From a bacterium (lineage in GTDB: Bacteria > Patescibacteriota > Microgenomatia > UBA8517), in assembly GCA_030583725.1 (NCBI GenBank), contig CP129472.1:593902-657901 (forward strand): 64,000 nucleotides of DNA, in the 5' to 3' direction. The first letter of the stretch is position 1; the number at the start of each line of letters is the position of its first letter. The notes beneath the pieces were generated by a model, which made no database searches, was not told where the DNA came from, and saw only the letters and a program-made list of their open reading frames with translations. Positions 3,397-53,389 of this stretch are shown here, piece after piece. The position numbers and the translations under genes are program-made.

Positions 3397-3885
3397 GTGG
3401 TAGTAATCTTTAGCCCTAAGATGGAATATAAGAAAAAAGATGTGGTTATTGGCTTTATAATAATTCTCCTTATACTTTTTGGCCTTTACACCTACAGAAA
3501 AATAAAAACTCCAAAACCCCTTAATACCGACACTAATAACGGCATCAGTTTTATAGAAGAACTTAAAGACAGTTTCAATTATGAAATTGCAGACGATGTT
3601 AAAACCATTAGACTTGAAGATGTATCAGGTGGAGACGGTCGTGGAATAGCTACTGAAAATGAAATACTGGCAGACCTTAGTGACCCTGAAACGGGTTATT
3701 ATTATCAAGTTTGGCTCGAAAAAAATGGTGAATATATCTCACTTGGAAAAATGGGAATTGTTAAAGGTGGCTGGTTGTCTAAGTATGATAAATCAAGTTA
3801 TGAGGGTTACAACAATGTTGTAGTCAGCCTAGAGAAAGTGGTTGATAATAAAATAGAAACAAAAATCCTTGAAGGTTCATTCTAA
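3397..3885 (+). CDS. membrane-anchored hypothetical protein
   Basis: N-terminal TM helix followed by a soluble domain. The real start is possibly the internal Met at 3421. Confidence 0.45.
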   Translation: MVVIFSPKMEYKKKDVVIGFIIILLILFGLYTYRKIKTPKPLNTDTNNGISFIEELKDSFNYEIADDVKTIRLEDVSGGDGRGIATENEILADLSDPETGYYYQVWLEKNGEYISLGKMGIVKGGWLSKYDKSSYEGYNNVVVSLEKVVDNKIETKILEGSF

Positions 3886-3903
3886 AGAGGGTATATTTAA
3901 GTA

Positions 3904-4410
3904 GTGAAAAAAACTATTCTTTTCTTCGTACTCTTTTTACTTTTTCTTTCTTTTCTTGTCTTTTTTGTTAGTGTTTGGAACAACCTAAATATATATAGAA
4001 GCGAAGATAGTAATGTTAGTAAAGTTGTAGAAACACTGAAAACATCCCAAGCTGTGCAGTCACTATATCTAGATTATTCAAACGAGAATTATGATAGTGC
4101 CCTACAAGACAAAAGGGTAGTGATTCTATTCTTTACGTCAAATTGGTGTGTGGAGTGTTTGGAACAGGACAAAGTTAACTTGGAAGTTTTTGACGACTTA
4201 AAAGATAAAGGTTTGGTGGGGCTGAGGATTCATATATTAGACTCAGAAACAACGACAGAGACCGATGCATTAGCCAAGAAGTTTGACATACACAAAGAAA
4301 ACTCCTTTGTAGTTTTAAATCAAAATGGGGCTGTCCACTTTAAACACACCGGAAACATTGAAAAGGAATTATTAAAACAAAAAATAGAGGAGGTGAGTAC
4401 AAACCTATGA
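3904..4410 (+). CDS. thioredoxin-fold protein (TlpA-like), membrane anchored
   Basis: GTG start, N-terminal TM segment, and a WCVEC CxxC motif in thioredoxin-fold context. Confidence 0.6.
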   Translation: MKKTILFFVLFLLFLSFLVFFVSVWNNLNIYRSEDSNVSKVVETLKTSQAVQSLYLDYSNENYDSALQDKRVVILFFTSNWCVECLEQDKVNLEVFDDLKDKGLVGLRIHILDSETTTETDALAKKFDIHKENSFVVLNQNGAVHFKHTGNIEKELLKQKIEEVSTNL

Positions 4411-28441: not shown

Positions 28442-29317
28442 ATGAATAATGTGAATAGTAATTCTGGCTACACAATTGGGGTAATTGGCTACGGTTTTGT
28501 TGGAGAAGCAACTGTTAAAGGTTTTGCAACAAACAAAGAAAACAGGATTTTTTGGTATGACAAGTATAAAGAATCTCAAAATACACTAGAAGAAGTAGTT
28601 AAACTTTCCGAATTTATATTTGTAAGTGTCCCAACCCCAATGTTTTCTGATTATTCTGGAATGGATATGAGTATTGTTGAAGAAGTTGTAGAAAGTGTTG
28701 CTAAAAAAATTGAAAATACCGAGAAAATCCTAATTATTAAGTCTACTTCGCTTCCTGGAACTACTACCAAAATGGCCAAAAAATATCCTAAAGTTAATTT
28801 TGCTATGAATCCTGAGTTTTTAACTCAAGAAAAAGCAAATTTTGATTTTTTAAATCCAAATAGAACGGTAATAGGAACTAGGAACGAGGAAGTAGGAAAG
28901 AGAATTAAATCACTTTATCAAACAATATTACCAAAAGATCAGACGTATTACATAATGGATACAACAAGTGCAGAACTTGCGAAATATATGAGTAATTTAA
29001 TGCTTGCGTCTAAAATTTTATTGGCAAACGAATTTTATTTACTTTCAGAGCATGTAGGCGCAGATTACAACAAAGTCAGAGAAGCTGTTGAGGCAGATAA
29101 AAGAATAGGCACATTTTTAAGCGTTCCGGGGTGGGATGGAGATTTCGGTTTTGGAAAAGCCTGTTTCCCAAAGGATATGATAGGTATTTTAGGCTTTGCA
29201 AAGAAAAATGACGTAGACATGTCAGCTCTTCAGGCTATTTGGGATAAAAATATTAAGATAAGAAAGATTAGAGATTGGGAGCATATGCCTCAAGCCTTTA
29301 CTTCAAAGAAAAAATGA
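28442..29317 (+). CDS. UDP-glucose/GDP-mannose dehydrogenase family protein, short form
   Basis: Rossmann motif GVIGYGFVG and catalytic Cys motif GFGKACFPKD. At 291 aa it lacks the usual C-terminal domain. Confidence 0.55.
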   Translation: MNNVNSNSGYTIGVIGYGFVGEATVKGFATNKENRIFWYDKYKESQNTLEEVVKLSEFIFVSVPTPMFSDYSGMDMSIVEEVVESVAKKIENTEKILIIKSTSLPGTTTKMAKKYPKVNFAMNPEFLTQEKANFDFLNPNRTVIGTRNEEVGKRIKSLYQTILPKDQTYYIMDTTSAELAKYMSNLMLASKILLANEFYLLSEHVGADYNKVREAVEADKRIGTFLSVPGWDGDFGFGKACFPKDMIGILGFAKKNDVDMSALQAIWDKNIKIRKIRDWEHMPQAFTSKKK

Positions 29318-29335
29318 TATAATTCAAGAAACTGA

Positions 29336-29530
29336 GGCCCGGTAACTCAGTGGTCAGAGTACCGTCCTTATGGTAGAAAATTTGGGCGCATAGCTCAGTG
29401 GTTAGAGCATCGATCTTATAAGTCGAGGGTCCTTGGTTCAAATCCAAGTGCGCCCACCAAATTTTCAGACAGACAGCGTACAAACACAGTCATAAGACGG
29501 GAGTCGATGGTTCGAGCCCATCCCGGGCCA
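29336..29530 (+). tRNA. tRNA gene interrupted in the anticodon loop by a 122-bp insert (exons 29336-29372 and 29495-29530)
   Basis: Perfect 7-bp acceptor stem GGCCCGG/CCGGGCC, D-arm ACTC/GAGT, anticodon stem CCGTC/GACGG, T-arm GATGG-TTCGAGC-CCATC. The anticodon is TAT if the insert lies at 37/38, or CAT if at 32/33. Confidence 0.6.
29384..29459 (+). tRNA. tRNA with TAT anticodon (Ile-UAU-like), CCA encoded, lying inside the insert of the outer tRNA
   Basis: Acceptor GGGCGCA/TGCGCCC, D-arm GCTC-AGTGGTTA-GAGC, anticodon stem TCGAT/GTCGA with loop CTTATAA, T-arm CTTGG-TTCAAAT-CCAAG. Confidence 0.8.
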
Positions 29531-29544
29531 CATAAATTATCTAA

Positions 29545-29736
29545 ATGAACAATAGATTGAAAGAATTAGAAGAAAAAAAACTAAAATATCAATTCAAACT
29601 TGATGGGATGTATAAAAACTTCAGGGGAGTAAAACATGAGAACTCACTTTCTGAACTTAGATATTCTGAAATAAAAGTATATGAAGATTTATTGAACTCA
29701 GTAGTTGAAGAACTTAAAACTTTGGAAAATAAATAA
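29545..29736 (+). CDS. small coiled-coil protein
   Basis: 63-aa ORF. Confidence 0.25.
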   Translation: MNNRLKELEEKKLKYQFKLDGMYKNFRGVKHENSLSELRYSEIKVYEDLLNSVVEELKTLENK

Positions 29737-29743
29737 ATTCTAT

Positions 29744-30751
29744 TTAGGATAATTCCTTTATCAACTCTTTTGTAATTTCTCTAGTTCTACCTACTATATG
29801 TTTAGCAATGGGTTTTTTGATATCAACACTTAGGGCATCAAGGTTTAGTCCAGCAGCAGCTCTTTCTAGAAGTGCATATTTTAATAATATTTTGTCTTCA
29901 GCTACCCCCTCAATTTTTTTGAGCCATATCTGTCTTTGTGCCTCAACTGCATCGGGTTCAATTTCACCAACACCGGCTAGGTCATACATAAACCAATGAT
30001 ATGCAAAAATAAGATCGTAATAAGGTGTACGCCATGACCAATATAAGTTGGATAATACAACTATCTGATTATTAACTTTAAATAAATCTCGTGCCGAGAA
30101 ATGACCATGCATGAATTCTAGTACAAGCCATTTGGGGTTTTTAGTTAATACCTCAACTGCCTTTCTAACTAATTTTTCATCTCCATTATGTCTAAGTGGG
30201 TGGTGGGGAAATATCTTTTTACTAGTTTCTATCCACTGGTCAAATCTTTGTTTTAAAGCTTTACCTACAGGAATATCCGGCTTTTCTAGCCATGGACTAT
30301 TTCGACACTTTGCACGATATTCTTTGTGGTATTTGAAAAAATCATCAATAGCAATTTCATTAGTTGGTGGGGAGATGACAAGGTTAGTACCTACATCTTC
30401 TAAAACAAACGCTTCATATCCCTTTTCTTCATCCCAAGGAAAGTTTGCATAAACTTTTGGAGGTCTTACCACCTTACTTTTATTTTGTTTTGCAAATTCT
30501 TCAACCATAAAAACTTCACTAGTTGTTGGCTTAACACCCTGAATTTTTAGTATGGCTAAGTTATTTCTAAAAGTCCCTTTTATATGAAATGCTCCGACTC
30601 CAGTTGATTTGCTCCACCAAGAGCTAGTGCTCAGTAATTTATCAGGGGCAAAACCACTTTTTTTGGAGACCTCATCCACTATTTGGGGGATTCTTTTTTT
30701 AAGATCGACACCGCTAAAAATACCTTTCCAAACCTCATTTTGCTTGGCCAT
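29744..30751 (-). CDS. kinase-like fold protein (aminoglycoside phosphotransferase/CotS-like?)
   Basis: HGHFSARDLF segment resembles the HGD catalytic loop of APH-family kinases. Weak evidence. Confidence 0.3.
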   Translation of the reverse strand: MAKQNEVWKGIFSGVDLKKRIPQIVDEVSKKSGFAPDKLLSTSSWWSKSTGVGAFHIKGTFRNNLAILKIQGVKPTTSEVFMVEEFAKQNKSKVVRPPKVYANFPWDEEKGYEAFVLEDVGTNLVISPPTNEIAIDDFFKYHKEYRAKCRNSPWLEKPDIPVGKALKQRFDQWIETSKKIFPHHPLRHNGDEKLVRKAVEVLTKNPKWLVLEFMHGHFSARDLFKVNNQIVVLSNLYWSWRTPYYDLIFAYHWFMYDLAGVGEIEPDAVEAQRQIWLKKIEGVAEDKILLKYALLERAAAGLNLDALSVDIKKPIAKHIVGRTREITKELIKELS

Positions 30752-30775
30752 ACCAATAATTTTAACACAATAAAA

Positions 30776-31639
30776 TTAAAGCTCGATTAAGGTTTGTTTT
30801 TTACCAGACTCATTAATATTTGCGAGTTTCAAATATCTTTCTGTGGTTGATAGTCTTTTGTGTCCTGATACTTGAGAAATTAAAATTAAGTCAACTCCAT
30901 TTTTGATGTTTTCCACAATGAAAGTAGTTCTTAAGTCGTTTACAGAATACTTTGGTAGCTCTGCTTTTTGAATAAACCTATCAACAGTTGCTCTGATGTT
31001 TCTGACAGCTAGAGGTTTACCTGTTTTACTTATAAACACATAATCTGAATCTACTTTTGGCCTATCTACAAGATACTTATTTAAAGCATCTTTTGCAGGT
31101 TTATTTAAAGGAATAACTCTTTCTGGTTGGGTTGCATATCCCTCAATTTTTAAAGTTTCTTCTTTTAAATCATCTGTTTTTATATTTGCAACTTCAGAGA
31201 TTCTCAAACCGGCCTGCAAAATGAGCTCAATCATGGCTGAAATTCTTGAATCAGTTTTAACTACGTCACGAAGAGCTCTGTATTCAAGCGGAGTTAAAAA
31301 CTTAGGCATAGATGATTCCACTTTAGGGTGGGTTACACTTTTTGAAATATCTTCTACTAGGTAGTTGCTTTCAACCATCCACCTAAAGAAAGTTTTAACA
31401 GCATTTAATTTTCTAGATACAGATTTAGGTGTAAATTTTTGTGCCAAAAGTGCATCTCTAAAAATATCCAAATCCTTAGACTTAACTTTACTGGGCTCGG
31501 AAATATTATTCTTTGTTAAAAATTCCAATAACTGATCAAGGTCTGATCTGTAGGCTAAAGTTGTAGCCGGAGATCTACCTTTTTCGTGTAAACTTGATAT
31601 AAATTTGGGTAGTAAACTTTTAATACTTTCTTGTGTCAT
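30776..31639 (-). CDS. tyrosine recombinase (XerC/XerD-like)
   Basis: 287 aa. C-terminal catalytic region has R...HKRLSTTERYLK (His and Tyr) and an N-terminal SAM-like domain. Confidence 0.8.
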   Translation of the reverse strand: MTQESIKSLLPKFISSLHEKGRSPATTLAYRSDLDQLLEFLTKNNISEPSKVKSKDLDIFRDALLAQKFTPKSVSRKLNAVKTFFRWMVESNYLVEDISKSVTHPKVESSMPKFLTPLEYRALRDVVKTDSRISAMIELILQAGLRISEVANIKTDDLKEETLKIEGYATQPERVIPLNKPAKDALNKYLVDRPKVDSDYVFISKTGKPLAVRNIRATVDRFIQKAELPKYSVNDLRTTFIVENIKNGVDLILISQVSGHKRLSTTERYLKLANINESGKKQTLIEL

Positions 31640-31666
31640 AATTAACCTTACTGGGGGTATTATACA

Positions 31667-32035
31667 TTGAACAAAAAAATAGTCAATATTATGGGGTTAG
31701 CAGCACCGGTTGTAATTATGATCGTTTTAGCCTCATCTTTTGTAAAAAGTTATAGAAAAGTCAAGCTCGGAGATGAATTGGTCGAAAAAACAAAAGTTAA
31801 GTTAGAAAAAATGGAAATTGAAAATGAAAAATTGGCAGAACAACTCCAAATTACCAGAAGTGATGAATATAGGGAAAAACAATTTAGAGATAAAATGGGC
31901 CTTGCCAAAGAGGGGGAGATAATAGTGGTTTTACCCCCACAGGACGAACTTAAAAGGCTTGTGCCAGACCCACCTGATGAGTTTGAGCCCAAAATAAAGA
32001 CTAATTGGCAAAAATGGCTGGATTTGTTTAAGTAA
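31667..32035 (+). CDS. septum formation initiator FtsB/DivIC family
   Basis: N-terminal TM helix, a coiled coil, and the conserved REKQFRDKMGLAKEGEIIVV tail. Confidence 0.6.
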   Translation: MNKKIVNIMGLAAPVVIMIVLASSFVKSYRKVKLGDELVEKTKVKLEKMEIENEKLAEQLQITRSDEYREKQFRDKMGLAKEGEIIVVLPPQDELKRLVPDPPDEFEPKIKTNWQKWLDLFK

Positions 32036-32051
32036 GTCACTTATTTTTTGT

Positions 32052-32125
32052 GTGCCAGCGACTGGATTCGAACCAGTGACCTGTCGCTTATGAAACGACC
32101 GCTACTAACCACTGAGCTACGCTGG
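32052..32125 (-). tRNA. tRNA with CAT anticodon (Met or Ile2)
   Basis: Reverse complement reads GCCAGCG-TA-GCTCAGTGGTTAGTAGC-G-GTCGT-TTCATAA-GCGAC-AGGTC-ACTGG-TTCGAAT-CCAGT-CGCTGGC-A. CCA is not encoded. Confidence 0.8.
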
Positions 32126-32372
32126 CCTGAAGTTGTATTGTACCAAAATTTGAGTCAGTATTCAGCTTTGTGTTACAATAGCTTTGTTCTTGAAATTTAA
32201 AAAATAATTTCATATGTGCGGGGTAGTGTACAGTGCACGCGAGGCTTGAGAAATTGGGCCACATTAAAAGAAATTTTAAATGTGAAACTTGGCTATATCG
32301 GGGAACGCCTAAAAATTTAGGTCAATCCCGAGGGAAGTTGAAATAACCCCCTAGAGACTACACGCCGAGCCC

Positions 32373-34178
32373 TCAGAGATGAGGTGAAGATATAGTCCGA
32401 CACTCTAAGTAATTAGAGATTACAGATCGCATAATCTCGCAGGCTGGGCGCAACTCCCAGCCCCGCAACAAGAAGGGAATTGAGGAAAACTTTTCCTCCA
32501 AAAGAGCCTGATTTTCGGGCTCTTTTTTGGGTTCAACCGCCTTTGCGATGATAGGTGCTATTTTTTTCATCTCCTTAATCTTAATGAGATACTTTGGGGC
32601 GTCAAATTGGACTTTTCTATCGTGCAAAGTTAGGTGCAACCCTAAACCTGTAAAAATATCCCGTTTAATTTTTAGGTCATCTCCTGCAAATCTTTCTTTG
32701 GCTCTTGAGGCAAATGTAAAGGCCTTCTCAGTTTGGTCGTTGGCCTGAATCATCCTACCGTCTGTGTCTACCAACTGCTTTTCAAGCCCCTTTAGTTCAA
32801 TTTCAAGCTTCGTTTTCTTGTTTTTATATTCTTCATCACTTAATACCTCTCCGTTTTTATTCATTGGCGATATTTTTAAATGAAGAAGATTGTCCAATTG
32901 TATTCTGATATTGTCGTGCGTACTTTTAATGTTTTTAATAGTATCTTCTCTAAAATCTCTCTCTGTTGTATTTTCTTTTAAAATTTGCTTAATTGCCCAA
33001 TTCATAAAGGCTGGCGAAATATCAATATCTGTTAAAAAATCATCTATTTGTTCCTCAAGTTTTTTAAGGGTTACAGATTTCTCCCCACATTGAGGATTTT
33101 TCTTTTTTCCACACCTGTAATAGGTATAGTGAAGCATTTTAGGGTCGGCCATATTGTGAATCAAAGTCCCGCAATGGATACATTTATCCTTATTCTTCTT
33201 AGTAATTGAAAACTTTTCTTTACAATTTGAGCATATACATTGCCATTTTTCCTCTCCGACTATGGAGGAATCACAAGAGGCACAATGTACAAGGCTTCCT
33301 GTATAAGCAAATTGATGTCCTTGAAGTTTATATTGACTACGTCTACCTAGTTTAATTTGAATCTCGTTAAAGGTACTTTCTGATACCATAGCCTCATATT
33401 CTCCCTTGTACCACACACCGCTTTTGAGTGGATATTCAAACTTGCCACAGTAAAAAGGGTTTGAAAGAATACGGTAAATCATACTTATAGAAAGCGGTTT
33501 ACCACCGCTTCTTTTCTTTGGTCTTGTTCTAAAACCCCAATCGTCTTTGGCAAGCCTATGGATTTCATTTACAGGCGTACCATTTTGAAACAACTCAAAT
33601 ATCCGTTTAACTGGCTCAAACCTTTCAGAATCAACTAAGATACGCCTGTTGCCACTTTCTGTTGTCTTATCGTTCAAATAGCCTTGCGGAGCAACTCCTG
33701 GCCTGAAGCCACCTCTACATTTCTTCACGAGTCCTCTTGTAACAGCAATTGATTTGTCATCACTATCTTTTTTGGATATGCTGAATTCGAGACTGAGCAT
33801 AAACTTGTCCTCTGGTGTGTTGTGATATGCTCTGCTTGGCGTTTTTATTTCAACCAACTTATTTCTATCTATTAAATCAATTATTTTCCCACCATCAACC
33901 ATATTTCGGGCTAGTCTATTTAAGTGCCAAGTTAGAATTGCGTTAGCCTCTCCAGCCTCTAGTTTGTTAATCATCACTTCAAACAGTTCACGACCTTTTT
34001 CGTGTGCTGATTTTGATTCTTGAAGTACTTCTATAATGTTTAAATTGTACCTAGTTTTTACGCCTTCAATTATAAAAACTTGGTCATCTAGGCTTGCCAC
34101 CTGTCTGTCTCTGTTATCCTCCGAACTCTTACGGACATAGCCTATGTATTTAAGATTGCTTAGCTGATTTTCTTCCAT
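32373..34178 (-). CDS. large serine recombinase (resolvase-domain integrase)
   Basis: N-terminal YVRKSSEDNRDRQVASLDDQ resolvase catalytic motif (the Ser lies in RKSS). Large C-terminal recombinase and zinc-ribbon region with multiple CxxC. The ORF 3' end reads across the left 18-bp repeat. Confidence 0.85.
   Translation of the reverse strand: MEENQLSNLKYIGYVRKSSEDNRDRQVASLDDQVFIIEGVKTRYNLNIIEVLQESKSAHEKGRELFEVMINKLEAGEANAILTWHLNRLARNMVDGGKIIDLIDRNKLVEIKTPSRAYHNTPEDKFMLSLEFSISKKDSDDKSIAVTRGLVKKCRGGFRPGVAPQGYLNDKTTESGNRRILVDSERFEPVKRIFELFQNGTPVNEIHRLAKDDWGFRTRPKKRSGGKPLSISMIYRILSNPFYCGKFEYPLKSGVWYKGEYEAMVSESTFNEIQIKLGRRSQYKLQGHQFAYTGSLVHCASCDSSIVGEEKWQCICSNCKEKFSITKKNKDKCIHCGTLIHNMADPKMLHYTYYRCGKKKNPQCGEKSVTLKKLEEQIDDFLTDIDISPAFMNWAIKQILKENTTERDFREDTIKNIKSTHDNIRIQLDNLLHLKISPMNKNGEVLSDEEYKNKKTKLEIELKGLEKQLVDTDGRMIQANDQTEKAFTFASRAKERFAGDDLKIKRDIFTGLGLHLTLHDRKVQFDAPKYLIKIKEMKKIAPIIAKAVEPKKEPENQALLEEKFSSIPFLLRGWELRPACEIMRSVISNYLECRTISSPHL
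32452..32469. repeat. left copy of 18-bp direct repeat (putative att core)
   Basis: Exact match to 38305-38322. GC-rich in an AT-rich background. Confidence 0.7.
32503..32528 (+). terminator. rho-independent terminator
   Basis: AGAGCC-TGATTTTCG-GGCTCT followed by a TTTTTT run. Confidence 0.6.
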
Positions 34179-34280
34179 ATTTTAAAATTCAAAAGGCCAT
34201 CCAAGTTGTACTCAATCAGAATCGCTTCAGATTGTCTTAGATGGCCATTAAAATAGCGATTCCTAAAGATTGAGTACCCT

Positions 34281-34469
34281 TTAATTTTGTATCTGATTGT
34301 TTATGTTGTCAATAGTCTTTGAGTAAGGCAAATTTTGTCCATATACGGCTTTTACTAGACCAATAAGGCTAGAGCTATAACCTAAAGCTTGTTCATCTGT
34401 TAGTGAAACTCCAAATTCTTTAAAATAGAGTTTCTTAAATTCTTCTAAGGCTTCGGATTGTAATGTCAT
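34281..34469 (-). CDS. small hypothetical protein (element cargo)
   Basis: 62-aa ORF, one of a run of overlapping minus-strand small genes. Confidence 0.3.
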   Translation of the reverse strand: MTLQSEALEEFKKLYFKEFGVSLTDEQALGYSSSLIGLVKAVYGQNLPYSKTIDNINNQIQN

Positions 34470-34690
34470 TCCTCCTCCCTAAAGGCTTCAAAAGCCTGAA
34501 ACAATTCTTGTTTGTTGTTATAAATTCCTTCATTTTTAAGACCATCGCTATAAGTAAATTTCAAGTACACAGAAATATCGTTATTTTGGAATTTTATCGT
34601 GCGTAAGTTATTTAAAAAACGTCTGGAAAGATGAGTGGAGCACTTATCCATCGTTTTGTTATTTTTAGTTACTTTGTAAAAATAATTCAT
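34466..34690 (-). CDS. small hypothetical protein (element cargo)
   Basis: 74 aa, overlaps its neighbours by 4 bp. Confidence 0.3.
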   Translation of the reverse strand: MNYFYKVTKNNKTMDKCSTHLSRRFLNNLRTIKFQNNDISVYLKFTYSDGLKNEGIYNNKQELFQAFEAFREEE

Positions 34691-35175
34691 ATCTGCATTT
34701 TCTTTTTAAGTTCTGCTATTTTCTTACCAAGTTCATCTCCACTCATAATTTTTGTTAGTTCTTGTGTTTCATTATCAGATTTCTTAATCTCAATATTATT
34801 TTTATATTTACTTTGATATTTAGTGGGTTCACTACTGACCCAAACCTTGGGTTTATCTGTAGTCCAAGTTGGGCTTCTAAGTGACCCAGATAGCCTCAAT
34901 TTCCTTCGTTCTCTTTGTTTGCTCTTGTTGGTTAGGAGATAACCCATCGAAGTTGCCTCATCAATTGCTTTACTGGCTGTATTTTTGCCGATACCCAAGT
35001 CACCAGCCATCTTTCTTTCTGAAACACACCACCCTTCGTCATCTGAGCGATAAAGAAACAGATTAAAGATAACCGCCTTTGTATTTGTCGAGATACTAGG
35101 ATTTCTCCAAAGACCTTTCCAATTTTTGAAAAATAATTTCCACTTTTCTTTTTGTTTAATATCTATTTCTTTCAT
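34687..35175 (-). CDS. phage-like winged-helix DNA-binding protein
   Basis: wHTH-like segment VSERKMAGDLGIGKNTASKAIDEATSMGYL and a basic C-terminus. Confidence 0.35.
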   Translation of the reverse strand: MKEIDIKQKEKWKLFFKNWKGLWRNPSISTNTKAVIFNLFLYRSDDEGWCVSERKMAGDLGIGKNTASKAIDEATSMGYLLTNKSKQRERRKLRLSGSLRSPTWTTDKPKVWVSSEPTKYQSKYKNNIEIKKSDNETQELTKIMSGDELGKKIAELKKKMQI

Positions 35176-35425
35176 ATTTATTTTTATCCTTCATCTCGAA
35201 AACCCTATCTCTGTAGGTTTCAACAGCGTCTAATAAGTCTTTTGGTTGAACAGGTGGGGCAGTTTTACTTATAAATGCGTTTGCTAGACTTATACATTTG
35301 TCTTCAGGAGAGAATTGGAAGTAAAGTGTGTATCCTTCTTCAGATGTACCCAAGAAAGATACCTCTGACTGTGTCAGAAGAAATGGAGCAATTTGTTTAT
35401 CCTTTGTCTTATAGATATTATTCAT
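35156..35425 (-). CDS. small hypothetical protein (element cargo)
   Basis: 89-aa ORF. Confidence 0.3.
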   Translation of the reverse strand: MNNIYKTKDKQIAPFLLTQSEVSFLGTSEEGYTLYFQFSPEDKCISLANAFISKTAPPVQPKDLLDAVETYRDRVFEMKDKNKYERNRY

Positions 35426-35443
35426 AATTCATATTTAAAGCAC

Positions 35444-35476
35444 AAAAAAAGACAGGGGTTTATATTTCCCTCTGTC
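35444..35476 (-). terminator. rho-independent terminator (minus strand)
   Basis: Hairpin GACAGGGG...CCCTCTGTC. An A7 run on the plus strand gives a U-run after the hairpin on the minus strand. Confidence 0.5.
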
Positions 35477-35702
35477 TGTACGTTGTCGCTTAGACTATCG
35501 GTAGGTAGTGCTCAAATCTTTACCTAAACTATCTTATTCCTAACAGAACCCTTTAGTTGAATCAAGTGTCTAAAACTATATCAATCTATATCAATTGAAT
35601 TTTGATATTGTGGCTAATTATTTTAATTTCCTATTTGACCAACTTTATTAAAATTACATTATTTTTATTTTATTTTCTTTGAGGCTGGTTAGGTTCAATC
35701 AT

Positions 35703-36251
35703 TTACCATCGTACGTCCTCTGGTAGATTTGGGTACATATCTTGTGTAGATTTTTCTGTACAAACCAGTTCTAGCTTATCATCAACTATTTTGTAATATT
35801 CCCTTGTTTGCTCCGCATATACTGGCTCTAAGACTAAGTAGCTACCTTCATTAAGCAAAATGTAGCTAGGATTAGCTGGTCTATAAGCGATAACCTTCCC
35901 AGTTTCTACATTTGTGACAGCGAATGACGCACAGTCAGTGCCACAGCCCAAAATGGCCAAGCTGTAACGCTCAGCAAAGTTTACCCCCCTTTCTGCTGTT
36001 TCTGTAATTCTTGTATAATGCCTCTTTGCCTCTGGGAGGTCTGAAAAATCAATAGGTTTGGGAACGCCATTATATTCGTCAACATCACTATTAGAGGCTT
36101 CTAATTCTTTTTGGCAAGTACTTTGAATATCTTGGATTGTGTCTTGGCTCTCTCCCTTATCCTTAACTGACCAAAACAAATAGATAGCTAAAAGAATATA
36201 TGGAACTAACAGAATGTAAAAAAGGAGTTTGTAAATATTAAATTTATTCAC
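35703..36251 (-). CDS. exported hypothetical protein
   Basis: N-terminal TM/signal segment and several Cys. Confidence 0.35.
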   Translation of the reverse strand: MNKFNIYKLLFYILLVPYILLAIYLFWSVKDKGESQDTIQDIQSTCQKELEASNSDVDEYNGVPKPIDFSDLPEAKRHYTRITETAERGVNFAERYSLAILGCGTDCASFAVTNVETGKVIAYRPANPSYILLNEGSYLVLEPVYAEQTREYYKIVDDKLELVCTEKSTQDMYPNLPEDVRW

Positions 36252-36469
36252 TTTGTATATTTAAAACCATAAAGTACCCAACTACAGTAATTATAAGGTT
36301 TTTCAAGGCCAGATGGTTTAAACCAAAACGTGCTTTTGGCTTTTTCTTTTTCCACTTCACTATAGAAATTTTTACAACGAGAAATCTCTTGCTGTCTAAG
36401 TATCAAAAATAAAGTAATTAATAAACCAAAAATTAAAATCTTTAGTAATGACTTTTGAAATTTGGTCAT
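36248..36469 (-). CDS. small membrane protein
   Basis: 73 aa with one TM helix. Overlaps the downstream gene by 4 bp. Confidence 0.3.
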   Translation of the reverse strand: MTKFQKSLLKILIFGLLITLFLILRQQEISRCKNFYSEVEKEKAKSTFWFKPSGLEKPYNYCSWVLYGFKYTK

Positions 36470-36574
36470 AACTTATGGTAACTCCTTGTTACTCCATTTT
36501 CAAGTTTACTTACGAGGCTAAATAGTAACAATGTGTGGGTTTAGTTTGAATCTACTTCTTGATAACTTCATTTA

Positions 36575-36787
36575 ATGATAACCAAGAAAGATTTGAAATT
36601 AGCCAAAACTATTAAGAAATATAGAAAAATAGCAGATTTAACCCAACAAGAATTGGGAGATAAGGTTGGGGTTACACAAAAATATATCCAATATCTAGAG
36701 TCTGCAAACAGAACACCAAGCCTAAAAGTGTTACGCAAAATTGCCCAATCACTAAATATAAAATCCTCAGATTTGAACCTTCTTTAA
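36575..36787 (+). CDS. XRE-family helix-turn-helix transcriptional regulator
   Basis: LTQQELGDKVGVTQKYIQYLESANRTPSLKVLRKIAQSL is a canonical HTH_3 segment. Confidence 0.75.
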   Translation: MITKKDLKLAKTIKKYRKIADLTQQELGDKVGVTQKYIQYLESANRTPSLKVLRKIAQSLNIKSSDLNLL

Positions 36788-37046
36788 AATACATCCTATA
36801 ATCTTGACAAATGGCTATTTCAGTGATATAGTGTTTTTAGAAATTTAGAGAAATCACAGGTTCATTTGCACCTAGCCATTTCTCTTTTTTTATTTAGTAT
36901 CTTGTACTTTAAAATTGCGAAAAGTTGATTCTCTTTTGAACCTTGAGTGGGTAGCTCCTTGGGTATTAGTTTAATTACTCGTACCTAAAGAGCTAACCCA
37001 TTCGGGATAGTGAACTAAAAAATCATTAATTCAAAGGAGATATGAA

Positions 37047-37367
37047 ATGACACAACAGAAACCCCGTAAGGAAGATGGTCTCGACCTGTTTATGCGTGCA
37101 CTTGGCACCAACGACGGCGGACGCGCGATTATGGACCAAGAATTGGCTGGCCAGCAATCGTTCGTTTCAAGCACCACCCTTCCGACCGACCTGCGCGGAA
37201 AAGAAATTCTCGAGGCCGCTGGCGTCAAGTTCCTCGGAGTCGTCGATGACGATGACATTTTCCAGTACGTGGAACTGCCAGAGGGATGGAAGAAGGTTCC
37301 GACAGACCATTCTATGTGGTCAAATCTCGTTGATGGCGCTGGTCGCATCTGGGCAAATTTTCTATAA
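37047..37367 (+). CDS. hypothetical protein in a GC-rich (foreign-composition) segment
   Basis: Strong RBS AAAGGAGAT. GC content is far above its surroundings. The overlapping ORFs on other frames (37075-37425, 37031-37399) are probably GC artefacts. Confidence 0.4.
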   Translation: MTQQKPRKEDGLDLFMRALGTNDGGRAIMDQELAGQQSFVSSTTLPTDLRGKEILEAAGVKFLGVVDDDDIFQYVELPEGWKKVPTDHSMWSNLVDGAGRIWANFL

Positions 37368-37644
37368 GGCCGCCTTTTACGACCGCAGTGCTCACGCAAG
37401 TGCCAGCAAGCCCGAAAACGAATAGGTCAACACCCGCAATAAAGAAATACAAGATTAGCCCGACGCTGACTATAAAGGAGGATTTTCTCTCTTTTAAAAA
37501 TCAATAGTGTCGGGCTTTTCTTTGCCTAAAATTATTTTTTAAAATTTTTGAATTAATGAATGTGAATCTATATCAAAAGTAATCGACAATACATAATACA
37601 TAAAGTTTCTTGAGTTCTATACCCCCCTTTGTTACGGAAAATTT

Positions 37645-38241
37645 GTGCACGAAGTGATAAAATATGGAAAGAAATCAATAACAATGACGTCGGATATTAA
37701 AAATAAAGTTTTGCCAGCCTATAAGGAGTTAAAAGGCCTTCTTGCACAAGCTCCTCAAACTGAGAAAATACCAAATATCCATCAACCTGAGTTGTGGAAC
37801 AGAACAAACAGTTTAATCACAGAGCTTGTTCAAATAACAGACAATAATAGATTTGACGAATATAAATTAAACACTAAATTTGGATATAATCACGAGCCGT
37901 ATGTCCCAACTGATACATACAGAGGTATGTTAAATGCTTTGATTATGAGATTACAGGGAGAATATTCACTTGAACCGCAAGACCCTTTTGGAGGTAGTCC
38001 ATCTACGATATTAAACCAAACTCAAACTCAAAATACTAATGTTCAAATTCTTGTACAACTTGGTATGGATTTACAACAAGCTATGAGTAAGACAGAGAAT
38101 GATAATGAAAAATCATTTATTGAAAAGATTAAAGAAAAAATCGGAGAGATAAAAAGCTATGTTGAGTTTGCTAATTTAATTGTTTCTCTAGCAATTCAGT
38201 CTGGAATAACACTTGAGAGATTAAAAACACTATTTTCTTAA
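37645..38241 (+). CDS. hypothetical protein (element cargo)
   Basis: 198 aa, no family recognised. The track start codon is non-ATG. Confidence 0.35.
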   Translation: MHEVIKYGKKSITMTSDIKNKVLPAYKELKGLLAQAPQTEKIPNIHQPELWNRTNSLITELVQITDNNRFDEYKLNTKFGYNHEPYVPTDTYRGMLNALIMRLQGEYSLEPQDPFGGSPSTILNQTQTQNTNVQILVQLGMDLQQAMSKTENDNEKSFIEKIKEKIGEIKSYVEFANLIVSLAIQSGITLERLKTLFS

Positions 38242-38304
38242 GCCCATTACCTTAAGTCAGGTATGAATATAGGCTCAGATAGGCCTAAAAAGTAATTTCT
38301 GATT

Positions 38305-38322
38305 AACTCCCAGCCCCGCAAC
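38305..38322. repeat. right copy of 18-bp direct repeat (putative att core)
   Basis: Exact match to 32452-32469. Confidence 0.7.
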
Positions 38323-38343
38323 CAAATAACATATAATTAACCC

Positions 38344-38589
38344 ATGTGGTTTGTATACATTCTTTTGTGTGAAGATAACAGTTTGTATACTGGGTATTCA
38401 AATAACCCCCAAAAAAGGTTTTTAGACCATAAAAGAGGTAAAGGTGGTCATTATACTAGATCTCATAAGCCAATTAAACAAATCTATTTAGAGAAGTTAT
38501 TTACAAAGTCTGAAGCATTAAAAAGAGAATCAGAAATTAAAAGTTGGGGTAGATCTGAAAAAATTAAAAATCTAAAATTAAAAGTTTAA
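38344..38589 (+). CDS. GIY-YIG nuclease superfamily protein (UPF0213-like)
   Basis: VYILLCEDNSLYTGYSNNPQKRFLDH...GGHYT matches the GIY-YIG core. Confidence 0.8.
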   Translation: MWFVYILLCEDNSLYTGYSNNPQKRFLDHKRGKGGHYTRSHKPIKQIYLEKLFTKSEALKRESEIKSWGRSEKIKNLKLKV

Positions 38590-38637
38590 TCTTAAATGGC
38601 AGATTTTCCGTTTTTAAGTTAAACTATATTTATATCT

Positions 38638-39651: not shown

Positions 39652-39912
39652 ATGAATATTTATCCTAAGGCATTTAGCGCTACTGAGCTCAAAACCAATC
39701 CTTCTGAGATTTTAAACCTTGCTGTCTACGGAGGATATGAAGTGATGATAGAAAAGTATGGTGTGGAAATAGCAAAAGTAGTTCCTGTTAAAAAAACTAT
39801 AAAAAGAACCGATTATAAAGATATTTTGAAAAAATACGCTGGAAGTATCCCAGATTTTCCTGATGTTACTTCCTTTAGAAGGAACAGAAAATATGTCAAA
39901 ATATTTGATTGA
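39652..39912 (+). CDS. type II antitoxin (Phd/YefM- or VapB-like)
   Basis: 86 aa, overlaps the downstream PIN gene, and is preceded by a palindromic operator. Confidence 0.55.
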   Translation: MNIYPKAFSATELKTNPSEILNLAVYGGYEVMIEKYGVEIAKVVPVKKTIKRTDYKDILKKYAGSIPDFPDVTSFRRNRKYVKIFD

Positions 39913-40285
39913 TACAAATATTTTTGTTGATTTATTAAGAGATAATTTAGATATACAGAATTTTTCAGTCAAAGGCGATTTGGCAACTTGTTCAATTACT
40001 TTATGCGAATTGTATTACGGAGCTGAAAAAACATCCAAACCTAGTAGCTCAATAGAGGGAATTGAAAGTTTGACCAAGGATTTAAACTTGAGAATTCTAG
40101 ATTTTGACGAGAATACAAGTAAAATATTTGCCAAAATTAAAATAGAATTAGAAAAGATTGGTCAGAGGTTGGAGGATTTTGATTTAATGATTGCAGCGAC
40201 GGCAATCCAAAACGATATGGTTCTGGTGACGAACAACTTAAAACATTTTAAGAGAATAAAAGGTTTAAAAATATGGACACAATAA
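39893..40285 (+). CDS. vapC: PIN-domain toxin VapC
   Basis: An internal start gives MSKYLIDTNIFVDLL. The conserved acidic residues of the PIN fold are present. Confidence 0.75.
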   Translation: MSKYLIDTNIFVDLLRDNLDIQNFSVKGDLATCSITLCELYYGAEKTSKPSSSIEGIESLTKDLNLRILDFDENTSKIFAKIKIELEKIGQRLEDFDLMIAATAIQNDMVLVTNNLKHFKRIKGLKIWTQ

Positions 40286-52724: not shown

Positions 52725-53006
52725 ATGAATTACACAGTATCATTTTCAGATTTTAGAAAAAATATTAGTAAATTTTCCGATATGGCAAATATGGGTAAAA
52801 GTGTGACTGTTAACGATGAAAAGAGAGGCGTGCCTCTTTTTAAAATTGTTAAAGCTGATGAAGACAATTTTGATTGGGATGACTATATGAAATTCATTAA
52901 AAAATTGGGAGGGAGTGGATTTTTATCAAGCGATGCCAATATTAAATCGATGAGTAGATTTAGAAACAGTTTTAATAAGAGATTCGAAGAAGCAAGAAAT
53001 AGATGA
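52725..53006 (+). CDS. type II antitoxin (VapB/Phd-like)
   Basis: The internal ATG at 52725 follows the operator. Overlaps the downstream PIN gene by 4 bp. Confidence 0.5.
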   Translation: MNYTVSFSDFRKNISKFSDMANMGKSVTVNDEKRGVPLFKIVKADEDNFDWDDYMKFIKKLGGSGFLSSDANIKSMSRFRNSFNKRFEEARNR

Positions 53007-53389
53007 AAATAATAGTTGATACATCAGTAATTATTGATTACACAAGAGCAAACATTGGATCATTCAATCAACTAATAAGTGATTCAAGGTCTGGAAATTG
53101 TGATTTATATATACCATCAGTTGTAATCACAGAACTTTGGTCAGGTAAAGAAACAAAAAATAAAAAGAATGGAGTAAGGCTAGAAAAGATATTGAGTTTG
53201 TTTAAAATAATCAACCTGGATCAAAAAATAGCAAAACATGCTGGAACAATTTCGAGAGACACTAATATTTTTGGTTTTGATGCCATTATTGCGGCAACTG
53301 CTCTTGAACTAGATGCACAAGTTGCAACAAGTAATACAAAACACTTCACAAAAGTTAAAAATTTGAAATTATATTCTTCAAAGAAATAA
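53003..53389 (+). CDS. vapC: PIN-domain toxin VapC
   Basis: MKIIVDTSVIIDY N-terminus, 128 aa. Confidence 0.75.
   Translation: MKIIVDTSVIIDYTRANIGSFNQLISDSRSGNCDLYIPSVVITELWSGKETKNKKNGVRLEKILSLFKIINLDQKIAKHAGTISRDTNIFGFDAIIAATALELDAQVATSNTKHFTKVKNLKLYSSKK

Follow-up and report, generated by a model that had tools for sequence, protein, structure and literature searches.

A complete tRNA-Ile(UAU) gene within the anticodon loop of another tRNA-Ile(UAU) gene in Patescibacteria

Introduction

In the genome of an uncultured bacterium of the Patescibacteria, a complete isoacceptor tRNA gene lies precisely within the anticodon loop of another tRNA gene, and this arrangement recurs across diverged lineages of the phylum. 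The locus was studied in a 64,000-nt stretch of genomic DNA (hereafter the window), in which both the outer and the inner gene are tRNA-Ile(UAU). We judge it probable, at roughly 0.6, that a promoterless tRNA cassette interrupted the resident gene, borrows its promoter and has taken over the decoding of AUA, the outer gene being left as a dispensable relic. A sequence-only reading of the same DNA had already offered disruption of the outer gene by a replacement tRNA as one of its explanations. The series of alleles that we found in relatives makes this the best supported reading, while the accompanying suggestion that the A/T-rich flanks of the inner gene resemble a target site has not survived.

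[quoted passage not shown] The forms of tRNA gene recognized in that review are intron-containing, split, tri-split and permuted; nested genes are absent from its list. The literature that we searched likewise held no description of nested bacterial tRNA genes or of a tRNA within a tRNA, in keeping with the initial impression that the arrangement had not been described. Two lines of earlier work are of immediate relevance. Group I introns have been reported in the anticodon loops of tRNA genes of Patescibacteria (Nakagawa et al., 2026; PMC13011429), and some bacteria are known to decode AUA with tRNA-Ile(UAU) and not with lysidine-modified tRNA-Ile2 (Taniguchi et al., 2013; PMC3575796).

Anatomy of the Nested Locus

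The features of the locus are collected in Table 1. The anticodon loop of the outer gene is opened by an insert of 122 bp, which is composed of a 12-nt leader, a 76-nt tRNA and a 34-nt trailer (29460-29493) and contains no ORF. The 5' part of the outer gene reads GGCCCGG-TA-ACTC-AGTGGTCA-GAGT-A-CCGTC-CTTAT and the 3' part AA-GACGG-GAGTC-GATGG-TTCGAGC-CCATC-CCGGGCC-A. The outer stems had been described as perfect across the insert, and indeed 21 of 21 stem pairs are Watson-Crick. Written in its intact form the gene would run GGCCCGG...CCGTCCTTATAAGACGG, with a joined junction of ...GAGTACCGTCCTTAT^AAGACGGGAGTCG...; the 30-mer that spans this junction, GAGTACCGTCCTTATAAGACGGGAGTCGAT, is absent from the DNA. 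When joined, the outer halves of the window adopt a canonical tRNA fold with an anticodon loop of 7 nt. ARAGORN calls them as tRNA-Ile(tat), and the call is tRNA-Ile in either register; the joined outer sequence of one nested relative (L089) is also called as tRNA-Ile. At the unaltered locus, the inner gene alone is reported by ARAGORN and Rfam. Once the inner tRNA has been shuffled, however, the outer gene becomes visible to ARAGORN in intron mode as a tRNA-Ile(tat) whose 122-nt intron lies at 36/37 (“cttat-Intron-aagac”). The sequence is as first described, one tRNA gene within the anticodon loop of another. Such nested loci are invisible to standard annotation, which reports the inner gene only.

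Table 1. Features of the nested tRNA-Ile locus, in coordinates of the window.
Feature	Position	Strand	Evidence and remarks
Extended -10 promoter element TGaTATAAT (putative), 12 nt upstream of the outer tRNA	29315..29323	+	Read from the sequence; conserved in the alignment
Outer tRNA-Ile(UAU), type A, 5' part (positions 1-36), ends CTTAT	29336..29371	+	ARAGORN intron mode with the inner tRNA shuffled; 31/36 identical to intact type A of L085
Cassette leader, 12 nt, GGTAGAAAATTT; last 8 nt pair with the trailer	29372..29383	+	AAAATTT invariant in 4 nested loci; helix 97% paired and in the minimum-free-energy fold
Inner tRNA-Ile(UAU), type C, 76 nt, encoded CCA	29384..29459	+	ARAGORN; Rfam RF00005, 74.8 bits
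Invariant trailer, AATTTTCAGACAG	29460..29472	+	0 substitutions among 5 loci
Variable trailer: degenerate hairpin (5/7 pairs in the window), then TCAT at the 3' junction	29473..29493	+	Hairpin intact in relatives
Outer tRNA-Ile(UAU), type A, 3' part (positions 37-73), AAGACGG...CCGGGCCA, without encoded CCA	29494..29530	+	ARAGORN intron mode; 33/37 identical to intact type A

The break in the outer gene falls at 36/37. Since the junction contains AT twice, it could equally be placed at 34/35 or 35/36, whereas a break at the canonical 37/38, where the sequence-only reading had placed it, would give G37, and the loop of the intact orthologue is CTTATAA. This orthologue belongs to L085, the closest relative, in which the same outer tRNA is uninterrupted, and the outer anticodon is UAU. 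The same comparison disposes of a CAU anticodon from a break at 32/33, and with it of the candidate identity tRNA-Ile2(CAU), which had been drawn from U-CAU-AA in the 3' half. All the gene types found at the locus (the outer type A, the inner type C, and a type B introduced below) have the anticodon UAU in the loop CUUAUAA. A comparison of the outer 5' 26-mer with species-representative genomes returned 71 tRNAs from Solirubrobacterales and Planctomycetota, all with the loop CTCATAA; the acceptor likeness between these and the outer tRNA is convergent.

The insert contains a complete tRNA with an encoded CCA and the anticodon TAT, as had been noted from the sequence; its score of 74.8 bits, against a gathering threshold of 29 bits for RF00005, places it within the tRNA family, and it is presumed to be a working AUA decoder. 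It is the most conserved part of the locus, with 0-3 substitutions in 76 nt and 97-99% identity in L081, L087, L089 and L091. On either side of it, GAAAATTT (29376-29383) pairs with AAATTTTC (29459-29466, the first A being the last base of the CCA end) in an 8-bp helix that, in the minimum-free-energy fold (z = -4.2 against shuffles), stacks on the inner acceptor stem and so extends it. The A/T heptamers that had been thought to resemble target sites belong to this helix, and are complementary rather than direct repeats. The invariant trailer perhaps has a role in 3' processing of the inner tRNA. In relatives, the hairpin of the variable trailer changes on both sides of a pair (CAGTGT/ACACTG, TCGGTGC/GCACCGA, TAGTGC/GCACTG), and at least part of this apparent spacer is consequently constrained.

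Promoter and Genomic Setting

The extended -10 element that precedes the outer gene shares bases with the TGA stop codon at the end of a UDP-glucose dehydrogenase-like gene. A simple promoter scan missed it because it lacks a -35 match, but every type A or nested locus has TGnTATAAT at this same spacing (12 nt) before its outer gene, and we infer that it acts as a promoter. The 12-nt leader of the cassette has no room for a promoter of its own. Since TGnTATAAT stands upstream everywhere, the inner gene would appear to be transcribed from the promoter of the resident.

The window has a G+C content of ~35% and carries housekeeping genes for enzymes of glycolysis and the pentose-phosphate pathway, penicillin-binding proteins, ribonucleotide reductase, FtsH and a DUF5667 protein. 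The relatives of a flanking protein, QY322_03580 (NCBI), are named Candidatus Microgenomates or Patescibacteria. Around the locus the gene order is conserved, and runs from ribonucleotide reductase, cobalamin adenosyltransferase, a TrwB-like ATPase and the UDP-glucose dehydrogenase-like gene, through tRNA-Ile, to a small ORF, a Xer-like integrase, DivIC, two tRNA(CAU) genes and TrpRS/TyrRS. Between the conserved small ORF and the Xer-like integrase, the window has a 335-aa ORF (29744-30751, minus strand) with no Pfam match, which among the relatives examined is common to L091 alone. Two PIN-domain (VapC-like) ORFs are located at 39863-40285 (+) and 53003-53389 (+), the former separating the TrpRS/TyrRS gene from a tRNA-binding-domain gene, the two being direct or near neighbors in relatives. 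VapC toxins frequently cleave the anticodon loops of tRNAs, and it would be pure speculation to link these ORFs to the turnover of tRNA alleles at the present locus.

Allele States in Related Genomes

The locus of the window recurs without a single base difference in two independent Logan assemblies (SRR24881069 and DRR859381). Homologous nested loci are found in four other metagenomes, with L081 (SRR24144930), the JGI contigs L087 and L089, and a rearranged derivative, L088; the last three contigs were found by a metagenome scan with the junction of inner tRNA and trailer. An assembly artefact, or a chance match of the two outer halves, would also produce an apparent nesting. Identical sequence in independent assemblies, the homologous loci, the existence of an intact outer orthologue and the unbroken Watson-Crick pairing of the outer stems (21/21) together refute such an explanation, to which we assign practically no probability, and the observation is confirmed.

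Four states exist at the tRNA-Ile position: type B alone, type A uninterrupted, nested, and type C alone. The majority of relatives (L076-79, L080, L082-84, L086, L092-94) are in the first state, with a third, plain tRNA-Ile(UAU) of unrelated sequence standing alone at the spot, the stems of which change with the genome. Type A is uninterrupted in L085, where the gene (loop CTTATAA) scores 70 bits with the Rfam tRNA model and the flanking dehydrogenase is 87% identical to that of the window; L088 carries the same intact gene. The nested state is that of the window and L081, and also of L087 and L089. In L091, finally, type C is alone at the syntenic site, without outer halves and preceded by a leader remnant, TGGTGGATTT. 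The comparison of orthologous loci that the sequence-only reading had proposed thus finds the insert absent from L085, where the outer gene is intact, and present in the nested relatives.

The type B genes (L076 6918-6990, L080 5899-5971, L082 6889-6962, L092 5889-5962) have an unusual 8-13 region, with TC-GTTC/TTTC vs. TA-GCTC, and reach only ~56 bits with Rfam; their stems differ between genomes with pairing kept. The arrangement in L088 is composite (4043-4285). Directly after its intact type A gene comes a type C gene reduced to its 3' two-thirds, which begins at about position 27 and carries a 26-nt hairpin insert of its own (4126-4151), then the trailer and a second type A 3' half. Illegitimate recombination at GAGCCA/GAGCA, with an intact and a nested allele as partners, is the probable origin of this composite.

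Fate of the Outer Gene

We favor a sequence of events in which this Microgenomates-like bacterium would decode AUA by tRNA-Ile(UAU), the promoterless 122-bp cassette having come to sit between positions 36 and 37 of the resident type A gene. Transcription would begin at the resident TGnTATAAT and pass through the 5' half of type A into the cassette. RNase P would then release the 5' end of the inner tRNA, and its 3' end would be formed by endonucleolytic cleavage plus exonucleolytic trimming to the encoded CCA. AUA decoding would be supplied by the inner tRNA, with its acceptor stem lengthened by the 8-bp helix of leader and trailer. The RNA of the outer gene, broken in its anticodon loop, would not be rejoined, and the gene would persist as a relic, subject in some lineages to decay or deletion. 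The other explanation offered by the sequence-only reading, that two tRNA halves are left once RNase P/Z has released the inner tRNA, would describe the fate of the transcript whether the outer gene is a relic or not.

Decay and loss of the outer gene are observed among the relatives. In L081 its T-stem contains a mismatch, two pairs of its acceptor stem are G-U, residue 8 is C (C8), the variable loop is shortened and the T-loop holds an insert of 29 nt; ARAGORN does not call this gene even when it is spliced. The outer gene of L087 carries a 24-nt T-loop insert, with which ARAGORN makes no call, that of L089 has a U-U mismatch in the anticodon stem, and L091 has lost the outer gene altogether with the inner type retained. 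The T-loop inserts of L087 and of the relic in L088 are homologous 24-nt sequences that replace U54, and in the alignment no clean removal of the insert from L081, L087 or L088 can restore TTCGAGC. These inserts (L081 7053-7081, L087 563-586, L088 4242-4265, all in the outer type A 3' half) are hairpins whose stems change on both sides of pairs (CAATCTA/TAGATTG, CAGTCC/GGATTG, CAATTT/AAATTG); the insert of L087 is missing from the near-identical L089.

The outer gene of the window itself counts against a simple relic. Its halves differ from intact type A by nine transitions, three of which fall at the unpaired positions 20, 26 and 44, and the other six constitute three compensatory pairs (4-69, U-A to C-G; 6-67, A-U to G-C; 29-41, A-U to G-C). 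No pair is broken. This pattern as a whole has a probability of ~2.5e-4 under random transitions, and so this sequence evolved under structural constraint, whether before an independent insertion or after insertion. The former alternative, in which the outer gene of the window diverged while intact and was then independently interrupted, may account for the pattern. A similar question is raised by L087 and L089. A single one of 72 positions separates their outer halves, against 6 of 20 in the variable trailer, and beyond the module most of the flanking sequence cannot be aligned. Neutral relics would not be expected to show this pattern, except where exchange with intact alleles by recombination, or recent transfer, maintains their uniformity. 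Such recombination may be what keeps the outer halves alike, and the relic 3' half in L088 is identical at 36 of 36 positions to the working type A gene beside it. We had considered the fast-evolving trailer as a neutral clock that would prove selection on the outer halves; this argument was dropped, as the hairpin of the trailer is constrained and the L088 relic displays the same pattern beside an intact gene.

Conserved outer halves are what would be expected if the insert were a true, non-self-splicing intron removed by host proteins, in which case the outer halves would be rejoined after cuts at 36/37, the excised product would mature into a second tRNA, and each transcript would yield two tRNA-Ile(UAU). 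We consider this unlikely, though with a real chance of being right. A possible route can be drawn in which the anticodon stem continues past a bulged C32, with UUAU and the first intron bases pairing with the last intron bases and A37 A38. Cuts at 36/37 in this helix would leave a 2-nt stagger with a 3' overhang, as in cleavage by RNase III, and an RNA ligase would seal the loop. This extension helix is paired at 9/9 positions in L087 and L089 (with G-U) and at 8/9 in the window, and it is present in the minimum-free-energy fold of L087; however, none of its pairs changes on both sides, four of them follow automatically from the palindrome TTATAA, and the helix, up to 9 bp elsewhere, is broken in L081. 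The three compensatory and zero disruptive changes in the window speak for splicing; they all reinforce the pair of stems by which the insert and the molecule as a whole are closed. The same holds for L087 and L089, whose outer halves are conserved to a far higher degree than the variable trailer or flanks, for the two-sided changes in the trailer hairpin and for the tRNA-Ile calls for the joined outer sequences of the window and L089. Set against these are the relic 3' half of L088, which is equally conserved although an intact gene adjoins, and the outer gene of L087, which shows that pristine stems are no proof of function because it is otherwise pristine despite its T-loop insert. That insert, in L087 as in L081 and L088, is not excisable to a normal T-loop. 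Moreover, L081 has a decayed outer gene and L091, in which the inner tRNA is sufficient by itself, has none, no bulge-helix-bulge motif could be drawn by hand at the junction, and we know of no bacterial enzyme for splicing of this kind.

The outer halves might instead be kept as a non-decoding, tRNA-like clamp that aids or stabilizes the inner tRNA, a role that would sequester the ends of the transcript and present the leader/trailer helix to processing enzymes. The outer helices are 95-100% paired in the four nested loci, each of their minimum-free-energy folds contains the outer acceptor stem, and even in the decayed L081 the acceptor changes give G-U pairs, not mismatches. A clamp would need pairing alone, yet the sequences of the D-loop and T-loop are also conserved in L087 and L089, and L091 manages without any outer halves. 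To our knowledge there is no precedent for such a role, and we think it decidedly improbable. With the constraint on the window's outer gene taken into account, replacement of the resident tRNA in place, with the outer gene as a relic, is still the reading that we prefer.

Movement of the Cassette and of the Alleles

The type of allele is discordant with the genome tree, and it follows that the locus turns over by exchange. For example, the type A sequences of L087 and L085 agree at 71 of 72 positions, whereas their dehydrogenases are only ~70% identical, and the relatives of L087 at 90-92% identity carry type B. The intact type A genes of L085 and L088 are almost identical to the outer halves of L087 and L089, while those of the window and L081 differ at 9-10 positions. 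Intact type A groups inside the nested type A sequences, which requires at least two insertions at one site or at least one precise loss. The type C fragment of L088 contains, in addition, its separate 26-nt hairpin insert at the same junction (CTTAT^GACAAGC...ACAT^AA). One junction, CTTAT^...CAT^AA, has thus received inserts in two different tRNA backbones, and this recurrence suggests that the cassette would have arrived by a site-directed process rather than in a single accident.

The agent of such a process was sought in several ways. Pfam scans of most window ORFs of at least 110 aa and a few shorter ones contained no transposase, and no recombinase or transposase was found within the insert, or nearby and specific to nested loci. 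The sole integrase in the vicinity is Xer-like and present in all relatives whatever their allele; integration by this neighboring tyrosine recombinase (30776-31639) was rejected on that ground and because the junctions share no 6-8-bp core. As regards miniature elements of the MITE or IS200/IS605-derived kind, a subterminal hairpin is present and the junction recurs in the second tRNA backbone of L088, but neither the window nor ~150 kb of related loci yielded another copy of the leader, trailer or hairpin inserts, and no transposase was found among the scanned window ORFs. A phage origin of the cassette or of type A was also rejected, as three scans of viral contigs were empty and a search of phage records gave generic tRNA similarity only.

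Comparison with Known Systems

The group I introns of Patescibacteria (PMC13011429) resemble the nested locus in their phylum, in the placement of the insert in an anticodon loop, and in hiding the gene from standard finders. The nested insert is nevertheless mostly a complete tRNA, and nothing suggests self-splicing. The outer 5' exon does end in U36, as a group I intron requires, but the insert ends in ...GUCAU and not in G, and with 76 of its 122 nt given over to the tRNA it has no room for a P3-P9 core. Rfam found no match to a self-splicing or other ribozyme family in the insert at E<=10, and at the same cutoff RF00028 had no match in 29000-33000 besides a genuine intron downstream (match at 32237-32419). 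The initial judgment that a group I intron could be discounted on account of its length was sound. We also rejected a degraded copy of that downstream intron, 2.7 kb away: the ends are vaguely alike (GAAATTGGGCC vs. GAAAATTTGGGCGC), but there is no Rfam signal, the insert lacks the terminal G of the intron, and what looks similar is simply where the inner tRNA begins.

The genuine group I intron is in a tRNA(CAU) gene (window 32217-32468, plus strand) that ARAGORN misses. This gene has a T1-A72 pair and a short D-loop, and is split after U33 by a 183-nt intron at 32247-32429 (RF00028, 79 bits); the same intron is present in L081, and L076 and L092 have an intronless gene. A ~6-kb island (window about 32470-38600) has no counterpart in the relatives, whose DivIC, two tRNA genes and TrpRS/TyrRS lie side by side. 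It includes an ORF for a 601-aa large serine recombinase (32373-34178, minus strand), whose last ~30 codons overlap exon 2 and the intron of tRNA(CAU), and it resembles an element that has integrated into that gene at its 3' end. In L087, a tRNA-Leu(UAA) gene (3620-3894, minus strand) carries a 204-nt group I intron (ARAGORN intron mode; RF00028, 78.6 bits); apart from this gene and one spurious call, ARAGORN in intron mode gave no other short-intron tRNAs in the related loci.

Archaeal and eukaryal tRNA introns are cut at a bulge-helix-bulge motif of two 3-nt bulges and a 4-bp helix. The literature searched includes reviews of such introns (PMC4033280, PMC4090602). Like the insert described here, these are short and lie next to the anticodon. 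The present case is bacterial, with the break at 36/37 and not at 37/38, and it has no bulge-helix-bulge: a check of the junctions, which had been suggested from the outset, places them inside a continuous helix, UUAUG/CAUAA, in which only C32 is bulged and no 3-4-3 register exists. No tRNA splicing endonuclease was present among the Pfam-scanned ORFs (most of those of at least 110 aa) of the window, a 64-kb part of a contig of 841,695 bp. The archaeal tRNA-Trp intron carries a box C/D guide RNA and so also houses a second functional RNA, although the passenger in the nested locus is a whole isoacceptor tRNA.

Bacterial rRNA genes contain intervening sequences that are removed by RNase III without re-ligation. 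These too are helix-forming, lineage-variable inserts in a loop of a structural RNA, and an RNase III-like geometry is possible at the junctions of the nested locus. A gap in the anticodon loop, however, would abolish decoding, and excision without ligation therefore cannot rescue the outer tRNA. Integrative elements that target tRNA genes are also known, including a class that enters the anticodon loop, and they share with the cassette a defined place in the tRNA gene and short repeats of loop sequence at both junctions. Unlike them, the cassette has no recombinase in its 122 bp and no duplicated tRNA 3' part that would restore the gene, and its flanking repeats are only 2-3 nt (AT or ATA) and imperfect (TAT/CAT). 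The UAU anticodon of types A, B and C is the one treated by Taniguchi et al. (PMC3575796), a study that concerns the decoding mechanism and not gene architecture.

Biological Implications

As a practical matter, nested loci of this kind escape standard annotation. Were the outer tRNA spliced after all, it would represent new RNA processing in bacteria, the first protein-dependent tRNA splicing there, and a nested two-in-one tRNA gene. The recurring junction hints at a site-directed insertion process. If the outer gene is instead a relic, as we consider probable, an essential single-copy tRNA would have been swapped without a gap in function, with the newcomer taking the promoter and disabling the resident gene in one step, and the intermediates of that exchange would be preserved in nature.
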